Assembly (NCBI GenBank): GCA_039929105.1
Contig: JBDSRX010000051.1
Span: forward strand, 1 to 45,849
Direction of reading: 5' to 3'
Length of the DNA: 45,849 nt
Origin: Candidatus Dojkabacteria bacterium
GTDB taxonomy: Bacteria; Patescibacteriota; Dojkabacteria; J137
In this document: positions 1-7,687 of the stretch, piece by piece
Position numbering within the stretch: position 1 is the stretch's first letter
How the letters are laid out: the number at the start of each line of letters is the position of its first letter
Notes under the pieces: model-generated
The model's database searches: none
What the model was told of the DNA's origin: nothing
Seen by the model: the letters and a program-made list of their open reading frames with translations, nothing else
Program-made: the position numbers and the translations under genes

Positions 1-2616
1 ACTTTAAACGACTACACTCTAAAAAAGAGAGATATTGTAGAAGTAATGAAATGTTTAATTAGGTTAAACAATGGAAGTCTTGCACAAGATGATATCGACT
101 CTTTAACAAACAGAAGAATTAGAGGAGTAAATGAATTAGTTTCAGAAAAGATAAGAATCGGAATGTTAATAATGGAGAAAAACATTAGAGACAAGATGAG
201 TACTTACTCAACTGACGAAAAAGTTACACCTGCAATGTTAATTAATACAAGACCAATAATGTCTGCAGTAAACCAATTCTTTGGAAGCTCAGCATTAATG
301 AGATTTATGGATCAAACTAACATTCTTTCAGAATTGGAAGTTAAGAGAAAGATTTCAGCTGGAGGACCAAGAGGTTTAACAAAAGAAAGAGCAACATTCT
401 CAGTAAGAGACGTGCACAATTCTCATTATTCTAGACTTTGTCCAGTAACTACACCAGAAGGACCATCAATCGGTATGGTTAACCAATTGGCTATTTACTC
501 TAAGATAAACGACTACGGATTCTTAGAAGCACCATATTACCCAGTAATTAATACATTTGAATTAGGAAAAGATAAATTAAAAGATTTTGAAAACAGATTT
601 GTAGGAGCTGATGTAATGGATGGAGCAAAAAAATTAGCTTCAAAAGGAAGTGCAATTACAGCAGATATTATTTCTAAGATTGAAAAAACAGGAGCAAAAA
701 CTTTTGTTGTTCAACCATTCATTAAGAATGAAGTTATTTACTTAGATGCAGATTTAGAACAAACAAGAAAAATTGCAAGTTCATCTACAAAAACAGATGA
801 GTTTGGAAATATTACAGATGCTAAGACATATGTAAGAGATGGTCAAGGATATGCAAAACTATCTACAGATGAAGTTGATGCAATAGACGTTAGTCCATCT
901 CAAATTGCTGGATTAGGTTTAGCATTAATTCCATTCGCAGGAAACGATGACCCAAACAGAACATTAATCGGAGCTAAAACTCAAACACAAGCTGTACCAT
1001 TAATTAGATCTCAATCTCCAATCGTTGGAACAGGATTTGAAAAAGAAGCAGCTAGAGCATCTGGAAGAACTGTCTTTGCAGAAGATGATGGAATTGTTTT
1101 AGAAGCCGACTCAATGAAAGTTGTAATTGAATATAAAGGAAAAGAGAAAGCATACAAGCAAAGATACGATGTTGAGAAATTTGTTAGAACAAATCAAAAT
1201 ACATCATTTACTCAAAACACAGTTGCAATGCCAGGACAAGTTGTTAAGAAAGGAGATGTTCTTATTGATGGTCCATGTACAGATAACGGAGAGTTAGCAT
1301 TAGGAGTTAACCTAAGAGCAGCTTACCTTGTATACGATGGTTATAACTATGAGGACGGAATTTTAATTTCAGAAAGATTAGTTAAAGACGATGCATTAAC
1401 ATCAGTTCATATCCAAGAATATGTTCAAGAAATTAGAGAAACAAAATTAGGAAATGAATTAGTAACTAGAGATATACCTGGAGTTGGAGAACATACATTA
1501 AGAAATTTAGACGACAACGGAATTGTTAGATTAGGAGCAAGTGTTCAACCTAACGATATCTTAGTTGGAGTTATTGCACCAAAGGGTGAGTCTGAATTAA
1601 CAGCAGAAGAGAAACTTTTAAGAGCTATCTTCGGAGAATACGCAAGAGATGTTAGAGACAACTCTTTAAGAATGCCTAACGGAGAACATGGAGTTGTTAT
1701 TGGAGTTCAAGTATTAGATAGAGAAAAAGGAGCAAAATTAAATGCTGGAGCATTAAAGCAAGTAAAAGTATGGGTTGCTAAGACACACAAAATTTCAATC
1801 GGAGATAAATTGACTGGTTTCCACGGAGACAAAGGAGTTGTTACAAAGATTGTTAAAGAAGCAGACATGCCTTACACAGCAGATGGAAATCCTGTAGATA
1901 TTATCTTAGGTCCATCATCTATGGTTAGAAGAATGAACTTAGGACAGCTTATTGAAACTCATGTTGGATCTTTAGCACAAAGATTAGGAGTTAAAGTAGA
2001 AGTTCAACCGTTCTCAGAATACTCTATAGATAGTTTAATGGAACTTGCAAAAGAATCTGGAGTTGAATATGAAGAAAAAGTTGATTTATTCGATGGAAGA
2101 ACAGGATTAAAATACAATCAAAAAGTAACAGTTGGAATGAAATATTGTTTCAAACTAGATCACTTGGCTGACCACAAGGTTCATGCTAGATCTACTGGTC
2201 CATACACTCTTGTAACTCAACAACCTGTAAGAGGAAAAGCTCAAAAGGGAGGAAGAAGATTCGGAGAAATGGAAGTTTGGGCTCTTGAAGCACACGGTGT
2301 GCCAAGCGTTTTACACGAAATGTTAACAATTAAGTCAGATGATGTTGTCGGAAGAGCAGCAGCTTACAAAGCTATTATCTCTGGTCAAAAGATTACTGCA
2401 CCAAATGTACCTGAATCTTTCAATGTGTTAGATAAGGAACTTGCTGGATTAGCAATCAAATTAGAGAAAGTACAAGCTACATATGATGATACTCAAGACG
2501 ATATGGCATTAGAAGAAATCGTAGACTCAGTTGGAAATAATCCAGAAGCATCTGCAACTGTGATTTTAGATGAACAAATGAAAAATAATGCAGATAGCGG
2601 ATTTACTGTTGAATAA
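1..2616 (+). CDS. rpoB: RNA polymerase beta subunit (5' end outside window)
   Basis: Frame open from base 1; motifs DDIDxLxNRR, FMDQ, VRDVH, TPEGP, GYNYED, GDKL, HARSTGPY, RFGEMEVWALEA. Confidence 0.99.
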   Translation, partial: TLNDYTLKKRDIVEVMKCLIRLNNGSLAQDDIDSLTNRRIRGVNELVSEKIRIGMLIMEKNIRDKMSTYSTDEKVTPAMLINTRPIMSAVNQFFGSSALMRFMDQTNILSELEVKRKISAGGPRGLTKERATFSVRDVHNSHYSRLCPVTTPEGPSIGMVNQLAIYSKINDYGFLEAPYYPVINTFELGKDKLKDFENRFVGADVMDGAKKLASKGSAITADIISKIEKTGAKTFVVQPFIKNEVIYLDADLEQTRKIASSSTKTDEFGNITDAKTYVRDGQGYAKLSTDEVDAIDVSPSQIAGLGLALIPFAGNDDPNRTLIGAKTQTQAVPLIRSQSPIVGTGFEKEAARASGRTVFAEDDGIVLEADSMKVVIEYKGKEKAYKQRYDVEKFVRTNQNTSFTQNTVAMPGQVVKKGDVLIDGPCTDNGELALGVNLRAAYLVYDGYNYEDGILISERLVKDDALTSVHIQEYVQEIRETKLGNELVTRDIPGVGEHTLRNLDDNGIVRLGASVQPNDILVGVIAPKGESELTAEEKLLRAIFGEYARDVRDNSLRMPNGEHGVVIGVQVLDREKGAKLNAGALKQVKVWVAKTHKISIGDKLTGFHGDKGVVTKIVKEADMPYTADGNPVDIILGPSSMVRRMNLGQLIETHVGSLAQRLGVKVEVQPFSEYSIDSLMELAKESGVEYEEKVDLFDGRTGLKYNQKVTVGMKYCFKLDHLADHKVHARSTGPYTLVTQQPVRGKAQKGGRRFGEMEVWALEAHGVPSVLHEMLTIKSDDVVGRAAAYKAIISGQKITAPNVPESFNVLDKELAGLAIKLEKVQATYDDTQDDMALEEIVDSVGNNPEASATVILDEQMKNNADSGFTVE

Positions 2617-2656: not shown

Positions 2657-5600
2657 ATGATTAAAGATTTTAAAGCACTAAAGATCACTGTAGCATCCAC
2701 TCTGGATATTATGAACTGGTCTCATGGAGAAGTTACAAAAGCTGAGACTATTAACTACAGAACTTTCAAAGCAGAACCGCAAGGTTTAATGGCTGAGGAA
2801 ATCTTCGGTCCAACAAAAGACTTCGAATGTTACTGTGGAAAGTATAAGAAAATTAGATACAAGGGAATTGTTTGTGACAGATGTGGAGTTGAAATTACTC
2901 ATAAAAGAGTTAGAAGAGAAAGAATGGGACATATCAAATTAGCTGCACCTACAGCCCATGTTTGGTTCTCTAATGGTATTCCTAACAGATTATCTTTAAT
3001 TCTAGATATTCCTCAAAAGAAACTAGAGACTGTTATTTACTACGCCAGATACGTTGTTACAAACGTAGACGAAGTAGAAAGAGCTAAAGCTTTAGAAAAT
3101 ATTGAGACTTTAAAGAAAGATGAATTAGCAGTATTAGAAACTGAGTTAAACGAAAAAATTGATGAGATTAAGGCTAGATTCGAAGAAGATAAGGAAGAAG
3201 CTAGAAAATCTAACAAAGATAAGAAAAAAGCAGAAATGCAATTAGAGAGAATTCTAAACTCAGAGAATATAGAAATTGCAAGAATAAAATCTGCATTCAA
3301 ACAAAAACAAGAAAATACAGATCAAAAGTTCCACGACTTAAAAAATCTTGTAGAAGACATTAGAACTGGTTCAACTCTTTCAGAAGATGAGCACCAATTG
3401 TTAGAAAGCTATAATTTCTACTTCATAGAAGCAGGAATGGGAGCTGAAGCAATTAAGAAGTTGTTAGATCAAATTAACATTAATGAAGAGTTAGTTAAGC
3501 TTGAAGAAGAATTCAAGACATCTAAGTCTGAAATGAAGAAAGCAAAAATTGTTCAAAGATTAAGAGTTCTTAAAGGAATTAATAAATCTGGAGTTAACCC
3601 AACATCTATTGTTTTAGAAGTTCTACCAGTTATTCCACCAGATTTAAGACCTATTGTTCAATTACCAGGAGGTAGATTTGCTACTTACGATTTGAACGAC
3701 TTATATAGAAGAGTAATTAACAGAAATAATAGACTTAAGAGACTTATTAACTTAGGAGCACCTGAGATTATTCTAAGAAACGAGAAGAGAATGCTTCAAG
3801 AAGCTGTTGACTCATTATTAGATAATAATCACAAACCAGGAGCACCTTCTCTAAACTCAAGAGGTTTACCATTCAAATCTCTATCAGATATGCTTAGAGG
3901 AAAGCAAGGTAGATTTAGACAAAACCTTTTAGGAAAGAGAGTAGACTATTCAGGAAACGCTGTTATTGTTCCAGGACCAGAATTGGCTTTCGATCAATGC
4001 GGACTTCCAAAAACAGTTGCATTAGAATTATTTAGACCATTCATTATTAGAGAATTAATTGCAAGAGGACTAGCACCTAACCCTTCTAGAGCAAAAGTAA
4101 TTTTTGAACAAAAAGATGATGTTGTGTTCGATATCTTAGAAGAAGTTTCTAAGGATAGACCAGTTTTATTAAATAGAGCTCCAACATTACATAGACAATC
4201 TATTTTAGCTTTCTACCCTGTACTTATTGAAGGTAATGCAATTAGATTGCACCCTATGACATGTACTGGATTCAACGCTGACTTCGATGGAGACCAAATG
4301 GCTGTCCATTTACCTCTATCAGATAAAGCAGTTGCTGAAGTTAAAGAGAGAATGTTCGCAAAAGAAAACATGCTTAACTTAAGAGATGGATCTCCAATTG
4401 TTAATGTTCAAAAGGACATGGCATTCGGAATTTACTTCTTAACTTTAATTAGAGGAGATGAAACAAAACCAGTTGGATTCTACTCAAGTACAGACGAATT
4501 AATCTCAGCTTATAACTTAAACAAGATTAATTTCTACGATGCTACTAAAGTTTTAGTTAATGGTGAATTAATCACTACATCTGCAGGAAGAGCAATATTC
4601 AATAGAGCTATTCCACAAGATTATGGATTTATTAACACAGCATTAAACAAGAACGATATTGCAGCATTATCATCTGAACTATTTACAAAATACGGAAGTG
4701 ATATTGCAATAGAAGCTTTAGACGAAATTAAGAACTTAGGTTTCAAATACGGAGGTCTTTACGGATTCTCAGTATCTATGGATGAGTTCCAATTCGGAGG
4801 AGAAACAATTGTTAACGAAAATATTAAAGAATTTGAAAAAGTTGAAGAGGAATTAATTAACAACTATAATGACGGATTTATTACAGAGAACGAACTAAAG
4901 TGGAAGAAAAGAGAGACATGGGTAAATACATCAGAAAAGATTCAAGAAGATGTTTGGGGATTAGCAAAAAAGAATTCTCAAAACTTAATGGATTTACAAA
5001 ACTCAGGAGCAGTTTCAGTAAGTTCATGGGTTAAGAAAATTTCTGGAGTTGTTGGATATGTAACAGATCCTTCTGGAAATGTTGTAGACCTTCCAATTAA
5101 AAACAACTTTGAGAAAGGATTAACAAACTTTGAATACTTTGTTTCAGCAAGAGGAGCTAGAAAGGGATTCGCAGACGTTGCCCTTAGAACAGCAGACTCT
5201 GGATACCTAACTAGAAGACTTCACGACGTTGCTCAAGATGTTATTACATCTGTTGAGGATTGTGGAACTACAGAAGGTATTACAGTTTCTAGAAGCGAAG
5301 CTAGATTACAAACATTTGAAGCTAGAATGAAGGGTAGAGTATTAAGCGAAAATGCAGTTAATTCAAAAACTGGAGAAGTTCTTGCAAAGAAAGGTGAGGT
5401 TGTTGATATTGAATTAGCTAAAAAATTAGGGGCAAACGAAGACGTTGTATCAGTTGAATTAAGAAGTCCAATGAAATGTCTTGTAGCTCATGGAGTTTGC
5501 GTAGCATGTTATGGATTTGATAATGGAACAGGAAAGATGGTACAAATAGGACAAGCGATTGGAACAATTGCTTCTCAAGCACTTGGAGAACCAACTACTC

Positions 5601-6565
5601 AGTTAACACTTAAATCTAAGTCTGACGCTAGAGCTGCAAAAGCTGACGTTACACAAGGTTTACCTAGAGTTGAAGAGTTATTAGAAGCAAGAAATCCTAA
5701 AGCTCAAGCTTTATTAGCAGAAATTGACGGAACAGTTCAAGTAATTGATGATAAAAAAACAATTATTGTAAGAGTTGTTTCAGAAAAGAAAGTTTCTAAG
5801 AAATATGAAGTTCCTGCAGAATATGAAGTTGTAATTAAGAACGGAACAACTGTAAAAGAAGGAGAAGCAATGGCTAAGAAAGGTAAGAAAGAACTAAAGG
5901 CAGAAATGGGTGGAAAGGTATCTATTGAAGGTAATGTTATTACTTTAGAGACTGGAAAACATGTTGAATCTGAACAAGAGACTGAATTATTACTAAATGT
6001 AATGGTTAAAGAAGGCCAAAAAGTTACAAGAGGAGATCAATTAACATTCGGTTCTATAGATCCTAAACAATTAGCAGACTTAAAATCAGTTTATACTGCA
6101 CAAAAATACATTATTCAAGGTATTCAAGATGTTTACGGAGTACAAGGATTAGAAGTTGATGATAGACATCTAGAAATCATTGCAAGACAAATGTGTAGAT
6201 ATGGATTAATAAAAGATTCTGGAGATTCTGAAAACTTAATGCCAGGAGATTATACTGATAAACTTGACGTATTGGCAGAGAACAAAGTATTATCTGCAGA
6301 CGGAAAGAAGGAAGTAACATATGGAAACGTATTACTAGGTATAACAAACTCAGCTTTAAGAACTGAATCATTCTTATCTGCAGCTTCATTCGAGCAACAA
6401 GTTAGAGTATTAACTGACGCTGCTTTGATTGGGAAGGTGGATAACTTGAGAGGATTGAAAGAGAATGTTATAATAGGAAGACCAGTACCATTGGGATCTG
6501 AGCTTATCGAGAGATTAGCATTAAGTAAAAAAATAGCTGACGCAGAAATGTTGAAAGCTGCATAA
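2657..6565 (+). CDS. rpoC: RNA polymerase beta' subunit
   Basis: Zn ribbon CYCGKYK..CDRCGVE, NADFDGD, GYLTRRL bridge helix, GLPRVEEL, GLKENVIIG; follows rpoB. Confidence 0.99.
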   Translation: MIKDFKALKITVASTLDIMNWSHGEVTKAETINYRTFKAEPQGLMAEEIFGPTKDFECYCGKYKKIRYKGIVCDRCGVEITHKRVRRERMGHIKLAAPTAHVWFSNGIPNRLSLILDIPQKKLETVIYYARYVVTNVDEVERAKALENIETLKKDELAVLETELNEKIDEIKARFEEDKEEARKSNKDKKKAEMQLERILNSENIEIARIKSAFKQKQENTDQKFHDLKNLVEDIRTGSTLSEDEHQLLESYNFYFIEAGMGAEAIKKLLDQININEELVKLEEEFKTSKSEMKKAKIVQRLRVLKGINKSGVNPTSIVLEVLPVIPPDLRPIVQLPGGRFATYDLNDLYRRVINRNNRLKRLINLGAPEIILRNEKRMLQEAVDSLLDNNHKPGAPSLNSRGLPFKSLSDMLRGKQGRFRQNLLGKRVDYSGNAVIVPGPELAFDQCGLPKTVALELFRPFIIRELIARGLAPNPSRAKVIFEQKDDVVFDILEEVSKDRPVLLNRAPTLHRQSILAFYPVLIEGNAIRLHPMTCTGFNADFDGDQMAVHLPLSDKAVAEVKERMFAKENMLNLRDGSPIVNVQKDMAFGIYFLTLIRGDETKPVGFYSSTDELISAYNLNKINFYDATKVLVNGELITTSAGRAIFNRAIPQDYGFINTALNKNDIAALSSELFTKYGSDIAIEALDEIKNLGFKYGGLYGFSVSMDEFQFGGETIVNENIKEFEKVEEELINNYNDGFITENELKWKKRETWVNTSEKIQEDVWGLAKKNSQNLMDLQNSGAVSVSSWVKKISGVVGYVTDPSGNVVDLPIKNNFEKGLTNFEYFVSARGARKGFADVALRTADSGYLTRRLHDVAQDVITSVEDCGTTEGITVSRSEARLQTFEARMKGRVLSENAVNSKTGEVLAKKGEVVDIELAKKLGANEDVVSVELRSPMKCLVAHGVCVACYGFDNGTGKMVQIGQAIGTIASQALGEPTTQLTLKSKSDARAAKADVTQGLPRVEELLEARNPKAQALLAEIDGTVQVIDDKKTIIVRVVSEKKVSKKYEVPAEYEVVIKNGTTVKEGEAMAKKGKKELKAEMGGKVSIEGNVITLETGKHVESEQETELLLNVMVKEGQKVTRGDQLTFGSIDPKQLADLKSVYTAQKYIIQGIQDVYGVQGLEVDDRHLEIIARQMCRYGLIKDSGDSENLMPGDYTDKLDVLAENKVLSADGKKEVTYGNVLLGITNSALRTESFLSAASFEQQVRVLTDAALIGKVDNLRGLKENVIIGRPVPLGSELIERLALSKKIADAEMLKAA

Positions 6566-6593: not shown

Positions 6594-7049
6594 ATGGCAA
6601 GAGTATCACAGCTTGTAAACAAAGGAAGAAAGCCAAAAATCAAAATGGTTAGATTCAAAGGACTATTGTTCAAGGACAATGCAAAATATAAGTCTATGCA
6701 CTTTAACTATAACGCAGTGCAAAACACATTCTTTAAGAAAGATAATCCTTTCAAAAGAGGAGTTTGTATCGCAGTTAAAATCATGACACCTAAGAAACCT
6801 AACTCAGCACAAAGAAAGATTGCTAGAGTAAGATTATCTAACAAACAGGTTGTAACAGCATATATTCCTGGAGAAGGTCATAATTTACAAGAGCACTCTG
6901 TTGTATTAGTGAAAGCAAGAAGAAGACCAGACTTGCCAGGTGTTAAATACCAAGTTGTTAGAGGTGTTTATGATGCATCAGCTGTTGATTCTAGAAGACA
7001 AGCAAGAAGTAAGTACGGAAGAAAGAAGCCAAAAGCAGTAACAAAGTAA
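6594..7049 (+). CDS. rpsL: 30S ribosomal protein S12 (divergent, with N-terminal insertion)
   Basis: [37 protein letters not shown]; position after rpoC. Confidence 0.98.
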
Positions 7050-7219: not shown

Positions 7220-7687
7220 ATGAGAGGAAAAAAAGCGATAAAAAGAGACATAACACCAGACCTAAGATACAACAGTTTATTAGTTGCAAAACTAATTAAC
7301 TCTGTAATGTTAGATGGTAAAAAAGAAACATCTAGACTTCAAGTCTATAAAGCACTTGATGATTTAGCTACAAGAACAAAAGTTCCAGCAATCGATGCTT
7401 TAGAAAAAGCTTACGATAATGTTAAACCAAAAATCGAAGTTAGATCTAGAAGAGTTGGAGGAGCAAACTTTCAAGTTCCTGTTCAAGTAAGTCCAGAAAG
7501 ACAGCAAGCACTTGCTACTAGATGGATTTTAGAAGCTGCAAGAAGTGGAAGAAAAGATACAGAATTCTGGGTAAGTTTATCTAGAGAGTTTCAAAATGCT
7601 TTCAAAAAGGAAGGTTCTGCATTCAAAAAGAAAGAAGAAGTATTTAGAATGGCAGAAGCTAATAAAGCGTTCGCTCAATTTGCATAA
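7220..7687 (+). CDS. rpsG: 30S ribosomal protein S7
   Basis: DGKK, EVRSRRVGGANFQVP, MAEANKAFA. Confidence 0.99.
   Translation: MRGKKAIKRDITPDLRYNSLLVAKLINSVMLDGKKETSRLQVYKALDDLATRTKVPAIDALEKAYDNVKPKIEVRSRRVGGANFQVPVQVSPERQQALATRWILEAARSGRKDTEFWVSLSREFQNAFKKEGSAFKKKEEVFRMAEANKAFAQFA

Follow-up and report, generated by a model that had tools for sequence, protein, structure and literature searches.

The RNA polymerase (RNAP) of a Candidatus Dojkabacteria bacterium, encoded on the 45,849-nt contig JBDSRX010000051.1 (analysed over its whole length and called the window below), lacks the histidine of the β′ trigger loop, and that histidine, E. coli position 936, is missing from 31 of the 31 genomes of the same order in which the loop was read. 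The β′ gene, rpoC, lies at 2657–6565 and the trigger loop, or trigger helices, at 5585–5668; these and all other features given here are on the + strand. We are close to certain that the loop change is real, clade-wide, selected and located in the sole RNAP of the cell. A fuller account, in which this rpoC encodes the functional, sole and vertically inherited β′ of Dojkabacteria (WS6, Patescibacteria), with a loop rebuilt stepwise, kept by purifying selection and working by the mechanism proposed below, is in our judgement, taken as a whole, somewhat more probable than its negation. We hold more tentatively, at a little under an even chance, that the Dojkabacteria RNAP stabilises the transition state through K988 and R992 (with K986) and a reshaped β ceiling (KTQxQ, R1069F/Y, G1260R), which would amount to a second natural catalytic solution in a cellular multisubunit RNAP, alongside at least four replacements of the His within Patescibacteria.

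A trigger loop without the canonical contact residues

Read in the rpoC frame, 5585–5668 translates to GEPTTQLTLKSKSDARAAKADVTQGLPR, β′ residues 977–1004, a stretch of 28 residues running from GEP to GLPR. E. coli numbering was taken from a MAFFT alignment of E. coli K-12 rpoBC with 69 β′ and 59 β sequences. The core of trigger helix 1 (5609–5632; L985 K986 S987 K988 S989 D990 A991 R992) corresponds there to M932–G939, with L985 at M932, K986 at R933, S987 at T934, K988 at F935, S989 at H936, D990 at I937, A991 at G938 and R992 at G939. The substitutions recorded are M932L, R933K, T934S, F935K, H936S, G938A and G939R, so that the three residues that contact the nucleoside triphosphate (NTP), M932, R933 and H936, are replaced by L985, K986 and S989. 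The hinge glycine G927 is Thr, and three glycines have thus been lost from the loop (G927T, G938A, G939R). The hinge and flank motifs GEPxTQLTL and DVTQGLPR are kept, as is Q982 (E. coli Q929). When searched with HMMER against all PDB chains, the loop aligned without gaps to bacterial β′ trigger loops such as 8x6f_D, and its length is therefore normal. The other five frames over 5561–5700 contain stops, and the canonical motif is found in none of them. The initial annotation, made from the letters of the window, had claimed just this, namely that the canonical His, Arg, Phe and Gly-Gly pair are gone from a loop of normal length for which no alternative frame supplies the canonical motif, and translation and alignment confirm it.

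Judged from its sequence, the gene is an ordinary bacterial rpoC on all criteria but the NTP-contact triad. Its frame is open for 1302 codons, and the 1302-residue product (from the open reading frame list, translation and Pfam) matches Pfam Rpb1 domains 1, 2, 3 and 5 with E values from 5e-70 to 8e-14, PF04997, PF00623, PF04983 and PF04998 each scoring over the curated cut-off. The catalytic Mg-binding motif NADFDGD is intact at 4274–4294 (β′ residues 540–546), the region of β′ R425 (NRAPTLHR) is unchanged, and the bridge helix is recognisable with two or three substitutions. The gene order at the locus is rpoB-rpoC-rpsL-rpsG, and rpoC is single-copy in a draft genome of 1.11 Mb (86 contigs, 97.8% complete). 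The further statements of the initial annotation, that NADFDGD is intact, that the locus is the normal rpoB-rpoC-rpsL one and that this is the cell's main RNAP with a single rpoC, are likewise upheld by the translation, by Pfam matches on the neighbouring genes and by the one match in the genome; the second canonical rpoC that it had raised as a counter-case was not found in the genome. No T7-type single-subunit RNAP (PF00940) was matched in this genome, but none was matched in any of 14 control genomes either, so the negative is uninformative. Two genes with sigma-70 region 2 are present. On this comparison the contact residues M932, R933 and H936 turn out to be typical of RpoC, not defining for it.

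The loop is strictly conserved. The order comprises 32 species-genomes that were searched, of which 31 were readable; the remaining one, G008, is N-masked at the loop, with a short run of N placed exactly over the KSKS codons (locus L007, G008:C1, about 108.4 kb). All 31 readable loops fit L-T-L-[K/Q]-[S/N]-K-S-[D/G/S]-A-R. KSKS is the common form, KNKS occurs in four of the five genomes of family f2, and QSKS in G012 and G004. K988, S989, A991 and R992 are invariant throughout. Among 26 loops of 84 nt (the window and 25 relatives), these four residues and D997 are identical, while each invariant residue is encoded by between two and five codons, the two serines by TCN as well as AGY; this synonymous variation around an unchanging peptide indicates purifying selection on it. 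A rule by which either a basic residue at 933 or the His at 936 is always retained was considered and fails, since QSKS (G012, G004 and four database proteins) has neither.

When the motif was back-translated into a DNA pattern, 31 of the 32 order genomes were matched once each; with the pattern reversed as a control there was no match. The loop region itself has exactly one match in each of the 41 nearest genomes and one per genome throughout the order. In a collection of 5.8 billion proteins, 65 of the best 120 matches (clusters at 90% identity) have a His-less loop, one of them in the form KSRS, and several close homologues are labelled Candidatus Dojkabacteria/WS6 by their sources. As a separate observation, two trigger-loop-region matches fall in one genome bin in G513 (C8, C20), G103, G125, G128, G139, G189 and G206; both matches in G513 lie in long open frames (1282 and 1157 residues), for which strain mixture, contamination or true duplication are possible.

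It is extremely improbable that the motif is an artefact, be it a mistake in assembly, a frameshift, a pseudogene or a second, divergent gene beside a canonical rpoC. We found no evidence for any of these; the genome is a draft. The rpoC frame is open and the other frames closed, there is one rpoC in a nearly complete genome and one loop-region match per genome of the order, and the motif recurs in 31 independently assembled species-genomes and 65 database clusters. Another assembler gives an identical sequence: the Logan assembly of run X1 holds an 8432-nt contig with 0 differences over 5200–6000 at a depth of about 10, although X1 is probably the source sample and its assembly is for that reason not independent data. 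In other soil and compost studies (runs X2, X6 and X10 were used), contigs of relatives span the loop, and a loose end in X10 encodes LKSKS through another Ser codon. The initial annotation had named canonical MRTFH in reads or close relatives as a refuting outcome; the X1 assembly and the relatives show the same motif as the window. Apart from X1, the runs contain just small shares of the sampled words, and no habitat claim rests on them. We consider assembly error, alternative frames and a second rpoC copy ruled out, as far as these data go, by the clade-wide motif, the independent assembler, the closed frames and the single copy.

Downstream of rpoC are rpsL (ribosomal protein S12; 6594–7049; PF00164, E 3.6e-32) and rpsG (ribosomal protein S7; 7220–7687; PF00177, E 3.5e-49). 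The rpsL frame has 151 residues and its Pfam match begins at residue 49, which points to an N-terminal extension or a true start further downstream.

Stepwise origin and accompanying changes in β

We took rpoB-rpoC from 60 of the 221 species-genomes (22 families) of the class and read their loops. The motif at E. coli positions 933–936 is RTFH in families f3, f11, f12 and f19, QTFH in f7 and f21, KTFH in f22, RSFH or KQFH in f20, and DTFH in f4. Families f5, f6, f9, f10 and f13–f17 have [N/D][S/T]KH; in many cases a new Arg or Lys comes after the motif, as in NTKHLAGRAG, and hinge 1 has become GEAA. HAKH is the form of f8, and K[S/N]KS that of f1 and f2. A maximum likelihood tree of 69 β′ rows, built with the loop columns removed and supported by the Shimodaira–Hasegawa-like approximate likelihood ratio test (SH-aLRT), placed f1 and f2 in one clade (100% SH-aLRT), inside a 38-row clade, also 100% supported, of [N/D][S/T]KH and HAKH forms. 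DTFH falls just outside the 38 rows, and further out come f6 and f17 (NxKH), then the canonical RTFH and QTFH families.

Because the His-less clade is nested within the [N/D]xKH clade in a tree that does not use the loop, the loop appears to have changed stepwise, and the series RTFH, DTFH, NTKH, KSKS is the most economical reading of these sequences. R933 would have been lost first; F935 would then have become Lys and a new basic residue would have arisen near the tip, and last would have come H936 to Ser and G939 to Arg, with Lys regained at 933. With a length of 0.25, the branch on which the His-less clade sits is no longer than its neighbours, from which we conclude that the β′ protein overall is not decaying.

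The sister forms were also recorded in their own right. In f5, f6, f8, f9, f10 and f13–f17, R933 is lost and F935 is Lys; in many of these families an Arg or Lys has newly appeared four residues past the His, and in most of them hinge 1 reads GEAA or GQAA in place of GEPG. The [N/D][S/T]KH and HAKH loci are L045–L064, L069, L071, L072, L074, L075, L080, L081, L086, L087 and L093.

The His has been replaced elsewhere too. In family f18 of the same class, four of the six genomes read have LRTFYK[S/A]GA, in which His is Tyr and the Arg and Phe are kept (loci L076, L077, L208 and L209, from G096, G101, G100 and G095), and the other two, G097 and G098, have LNTKHKSGA. The two f18 genomes read for β, G096 and G101, have the β motif NMQRQ altered to SNMNQ. 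The tree puts f18 beside a canonical family, at a great distance from the window's clade, and we therefore regard its loss of His as a separate event. Outside the class, 98 loops were read among 401 genomes sampled evenly over the phylum; the sample is biased to query-like sequences, and ten of the weakest matches were added deliberately. The His is kept in 96 of the 98. The exceptions are G246 (family f48; L192/L214), with MRTFQMGG (His to Gln, one genome), and G568 (family f134; L206/L215), with MRTVNTGG (His to Asn and Phe to Val). The Asn form is present in three of the four f134 genomes read (G568, G469 at L212 and G532 at L213), the fourth, G592, having RTTH. Both G568 and G246 keep β NMQRQ. 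Replacement of F935 by Lys or Arg with the His kept recurs in several other families (HSKHR, RTKH, RVKH, DSKHR, RSKH, QSKH, GSKH, RVRH). Locus L143 retains the His, its apparent NQGK being a register artefact from an insertion. Taken together, the loops indicate that the trigger-loop His was replaced at least four times in Patescibacteria, by Ser, Tyr, Asn and Gln, and no other case read is as large or as radical as that of the window's order. This sampling covered 100 genomes outside the class and 53 within the class but outside the order.

The β subunit of the His-less clade has changed as well. Only the C-terminal 871 residues of rpoB are in the window (1–2616; Pfam Rpb2 domains 2, 3, 45, 6 and 7), the gene being truncated by the contig start. 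Within it, NDDPNRTLIGAKTQTQAVP (943–999; E. coli DDANRALMGANMQRQAVP) carries M681I, N684K, M685T and R687T; GDKLTGFHGDKG (1801–1836; E. coli GDKMAGRHGNKG) carries R1069F with K1065 and K1073 kept; and PVRGKAQKGGRRFGEME (2224–2274; E. coli PLGGKAQFGGQRFGEME) carries G1260R, F1265K and Q1268R. Across the clade the near-universal ANMQRQAVP has become AKTQ[T/N/G]QA[V/I]P, so that R687 is lost too, and F1265 is K, R or M. At R1069, in GDKMAGRHGNKG, the window's order has Phe or Tyr, and the nearest NTKH families (f8, f9, f13–f15) have Leu. In β′, the bridge helix FEYFVSARGARKGFADVALRTADSGYLTRRLHDVAQD (5129–5239) differs from E. coli by L783F and T786V, most other genera of the family having G782S in addition, and RKGLADTAL is RK[G/S]FADVAL in the clade. 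Sites at which the 12 f1 and f2 rows share a residue rare elsewhere are R312K, I394P, H936S and G939R in β′ and N684K, M685T, G1260R and two minor sites in β. Left intact are β′ R425 and β K1065, K1073, R1106, E813/D814 and H1237. Throughout the class, a Lys or Arg stands ahead of β R1106 (xKRMN or xRRMN).

Such changes might be a record of escape from inhibitors, in which natural compounds that bind the trigger loop, bridge helix or β pocket, with streptolydigin- or rifamycin-like soil compounds as candidates, were the main driver of the remodelling and the catalytic cost was later compensated; this would be compatible with either account of the loop's mechanism given below. The changed sites cluster in elements that inhibitors target, β R687 is part of the rifampicin-resistance region, and relatives were found in soil, rhizosphere and compost metagenomes, in small shares except in X1. 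Streptolydigin is reported to block trigger-loop folding (PMC11724273, PMC3957892). Against escape, the changes accumulated stepwise over deep branches and do not look like a single resistance-type substitution, and in G568 and G246 the His was lost without any such change in β, NMQRQ being kept. We judge inhibitor escape improbable.

How the rebuilt loop may work

In E. coli, trigger helix 1a is described as bearing all NTP contacts, made by M932, R933 and H936, and blocking the contacts of the trigger loop with NTP lowers the turnover number (kcat) at least 10^4-fold (PMC4227799). In Taq RNAP, R1239A and H1242A each slow nucleotide addition 50–100-fold, acting at the same step and in a functionally analogous way, while F1241A costs 3–4-fold and M1238L behaves like wild type; intrinsic cleavage is strongly lowered by H1242A and not by R1239A (PMC2874521). 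Yeast tolerates H1085L well, and current opinion regards the His as a positional, not an acid-base, catalyst (PMC12391331).

We propose that the Dojkabacteria loop would still fold into trigger helices over the substrate, with K988 and R992, aided by K986 where present, supplying the charge and positioning of R933 and H936. The small Ser at 989 would leave room, the Ala-rich, Gly-poor tip would push the equilibrium toward the folded state, and the remodelled β residues round the active-site cavity (N684K, M685T, R687x, R1069F/Y, G1260R) would have co-adapted. Residues 985, 988 and 992 (i, i+3, i+7) lie on one face of an ideal α-helix, the canonical counterpart of which is M932, F935/H936 and G939. 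We infer folding with K988 and R992 contacts because a working Leu, Q982 and the hinges are kept and because three basic residues, two of them invariant, share a helix face. The suggestion of the initial annotation, that this is a naturally re-engineered active site possibly using Lys as a positional catalyst, agrees with the strictness with which K988 and R992 are conserved; the altered rate, fidelity, pausing and inhibitor sensitivity that it foresaw would be predictions of this reading. Three findings are additional to that annotation: the stepwise change nested in a larger F935K clade, the covariation of β, and the independent losses of the His in other Patescibacteria. As substrate contacts, these two residues are a candidate assignment from the helical wheel that we would rate as almost, though not quite, balanced between right and wrong.

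AlphaFold, run on β′ 701–1302 of the window with a 61-row alignment, returned one helix from 968 to 994 that passes through KSKSDARAA, with a predicted local distance difference test (pLDDT) of 57 and 51 for the loop blocks. In a canonical control (a fragment of G038 with a 43-row, more distant alignment) the helix ended four residues earlier, and the pLDDT of the blocks was 28 and 29. Since the control model was of lower quality throughout (mean pLDDT 70.5 versus 81.2), the difference is not attributable to the loop sequence, and the low-confidence model is compatible with a helix. The helix-propensity sum on a Pace-Scholtz scale, 3.37 versus 7.48 for the canonical 12-mer, is illustrative only.

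The loss of His also bears on proofreading. In Thermus, loop-dependent proofreading requires the His; the Dojkabacteria enzyme is therefore expected to show weak intrinsic cleavage and to lean on GreA, to which proofreading would probably be left. The window's genome has one GreA gene, and the GreA C-terminal domain was found in 32 of the 32 genomes of the order and in all eight other His-less genomes searched, G568, G469, G532 and G246 among them. Five genomes of the order (G009, G014, G015, G017, G018) have three to five matches each to the GreA/GreB C-terminal domain, some in frames of 77–89 residues; these may be Gre-factor paralogues in 1-Mb genomes.

Several points weigh against this mechanism. 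The contact by K988 and R992 is read off a helical wheel, and the loop in the AlphaFold model has low confidence (the block values above). The yeast residue equivalent to E. coli G939, G1088, is reported to sit in a tight pocket and to tolerate no other residue, and Arg at this position suggests that the folded geometry is not canonical; it implies a different packing, perhaps enabled by the bridge-helix and β changes. K986 is not essential, being Gln in two of the 31 genomes (G012, G004). A stiffer loop is not obviously beneficial, since the E. coli 6Ala variant, in which hinge Gly and Pro are removed, slowed addition 25–300-fold (PMC4227799). The presence of GreA does not discriminate, because many bacteria have the gene, 9 of the 14 control genomes included. 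Finally, Ser also replaces the His in plant RNA polymerase IV (Pol IV), where the loop is described as not touching the NTP (PMC11343019).

This last point introduces a different possibility, that the loop has decayed as in Pol IV, no longer closes on the substrate and leaves catalysis to the core active site, giving a slow, error-prone enzyme that would be tolerable in very slow-growing symbionts with small genomes. KSKSDAR would then be kept for another role, such as control of translocation or pausing, binding of secondary-channel factors, or structural packing. In Pol IV the Ser is S898, and the published description is of a loop without GTP contact and of lower substrate affinity and incorporation efficiency (PMC11343019). 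In the window all three canonical contact residues are changed, and Arg occupies position 939, where a small residue is otherwise required. The His or R933 is gone from several lineages of Patescibacteria, a sign that the phylum may place lighter demands on the loop, and some genomes of the order have two to five GreA-domain genes. Decay is harder to reconcile with the strict purifying selection on a motif whose basic residues are invariant, with the retention of loop length and of GEPxTQLTL and DVTQGLPR, and with Q982 and L985, the Leu being like wild type in Taq. Pol IV is moreover an accessory enzyme, whereas the RNAP of the window is the only one of its cell, and a loss of kcat of at least 10^4-fold without loop contacts, as reported for E. 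coli (PMC4227799), is hard to square with a sole polymerase. We therefore regard a decayed loop as unlikely and retain folding with contacts by K988 and R992 as the working proposal.

Comparison with known systems

The exact role of the trigger-loop His has been debated for nearly twenty years, from laboratory mutants. It has been called universally conserved in multisubunit RNAPs and the positional catalyst of nucleotide addition (PMC11343019, PMC12391331), and a 2024 paper describes it as universally conserved outside Pol IV (PMC11343019). In full-text searches, which exclude supplementary alignments, we found no description of a trigger loop from Patescibacteria, candidate phyla radiation (CPR) bacteria or Dojkabacteria, or of a natural bacterial loss of the His. 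CPR bacteria are mentioned in PMC11515920 for insertion domains only, and natural variants at the His position may be listed in the alignments on which PMC12391331 draws, which cover the trigger loops of 1403 bacterial sequences.

An entire bacterial order whose only RNAP lacks the His, together with the neighbouring Arg, Phe and Gly-Gly, would, if the proposal is true, mean that cellular life can do without the His, and would turn the phylum into a natural mutational series in which to test the positional-catalyst model. The series RTFH, DTFH, NTKH, KSKS lets one ask which contacts catalysis needs, and bears also on epistasis between loop and β and on speed, fidelity and proofreading in minimal-genome symbionts. 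It further cautions that "invariant" loop residues are unsafe as hard constraints in annotation or inhibitor design.

With canonical bacterial β′ subunits that lack the SI3 insertion (8x6f_D, 6wvj_D and, from Thermus, 1iw7_D), the window's protein shares its domains, NADFDGD, the bridge helix, the 28-residue loop, the hinges and the gene order; it differs in reading LKSKSDAR for MRTFHTGG and in the accompanying changes at β NMQRQ, R1069 and G1260. Multisubunit-type RNAPs without a trigger loop are known, namely the YonO-like and the phage non-virion enzymes. Unlike these, the window has a loop of normal length with conserved hinges. Closest in nature are the sister [N/D][S/T]KH Patescibacteria, which share with the window's clade its descent, F935K, Leu at 932 and a tip that is rich in Ala and bears a new Arg or Lys, but keep H936 and β NMQRQ and have no basic residue at 933; their Asn at 933 is that of yeast Pol II N1082 (PMC2874521).

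Engineered enzymes offer a second comparison. In E. coli 6Ala, replacement of loop Gly and Pro stabilised the folded helices (PMC4227799), and the window's loop has lost three glycines; 6Ala alters both hinges, whereas the window alters one hinge glycine and the Gly-Gly after the His. Laboratory mutants (Taq H1242A and R1239A, E. coli H936A/Q, yeast Rpb1 H1085L/Y/Q), which are the closest experimental analogues, indicate that the His can be removed with activity partly kept (PMC2874521, PMC12391331, PMC8421135). Those are single substitutions in a canonical context, while in the window several residues have changed together in a natural haplotype that is fixed throughout an order and accompanied by co-varying changes in β. 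Plant Pol IV (NRPD1) is similar at a single residue, the Ser (S898) at the His position, as in S989; it is an accessory enzyme beside Pol II, and its loop is reported to lack the other conserved contacts and to lie away from the NTP (PMC11343019). The RNAP of the window is, unlike Pol IV, the only one in its cell, and its motif is strictly conserved, with the Lys and the Arg invariant.

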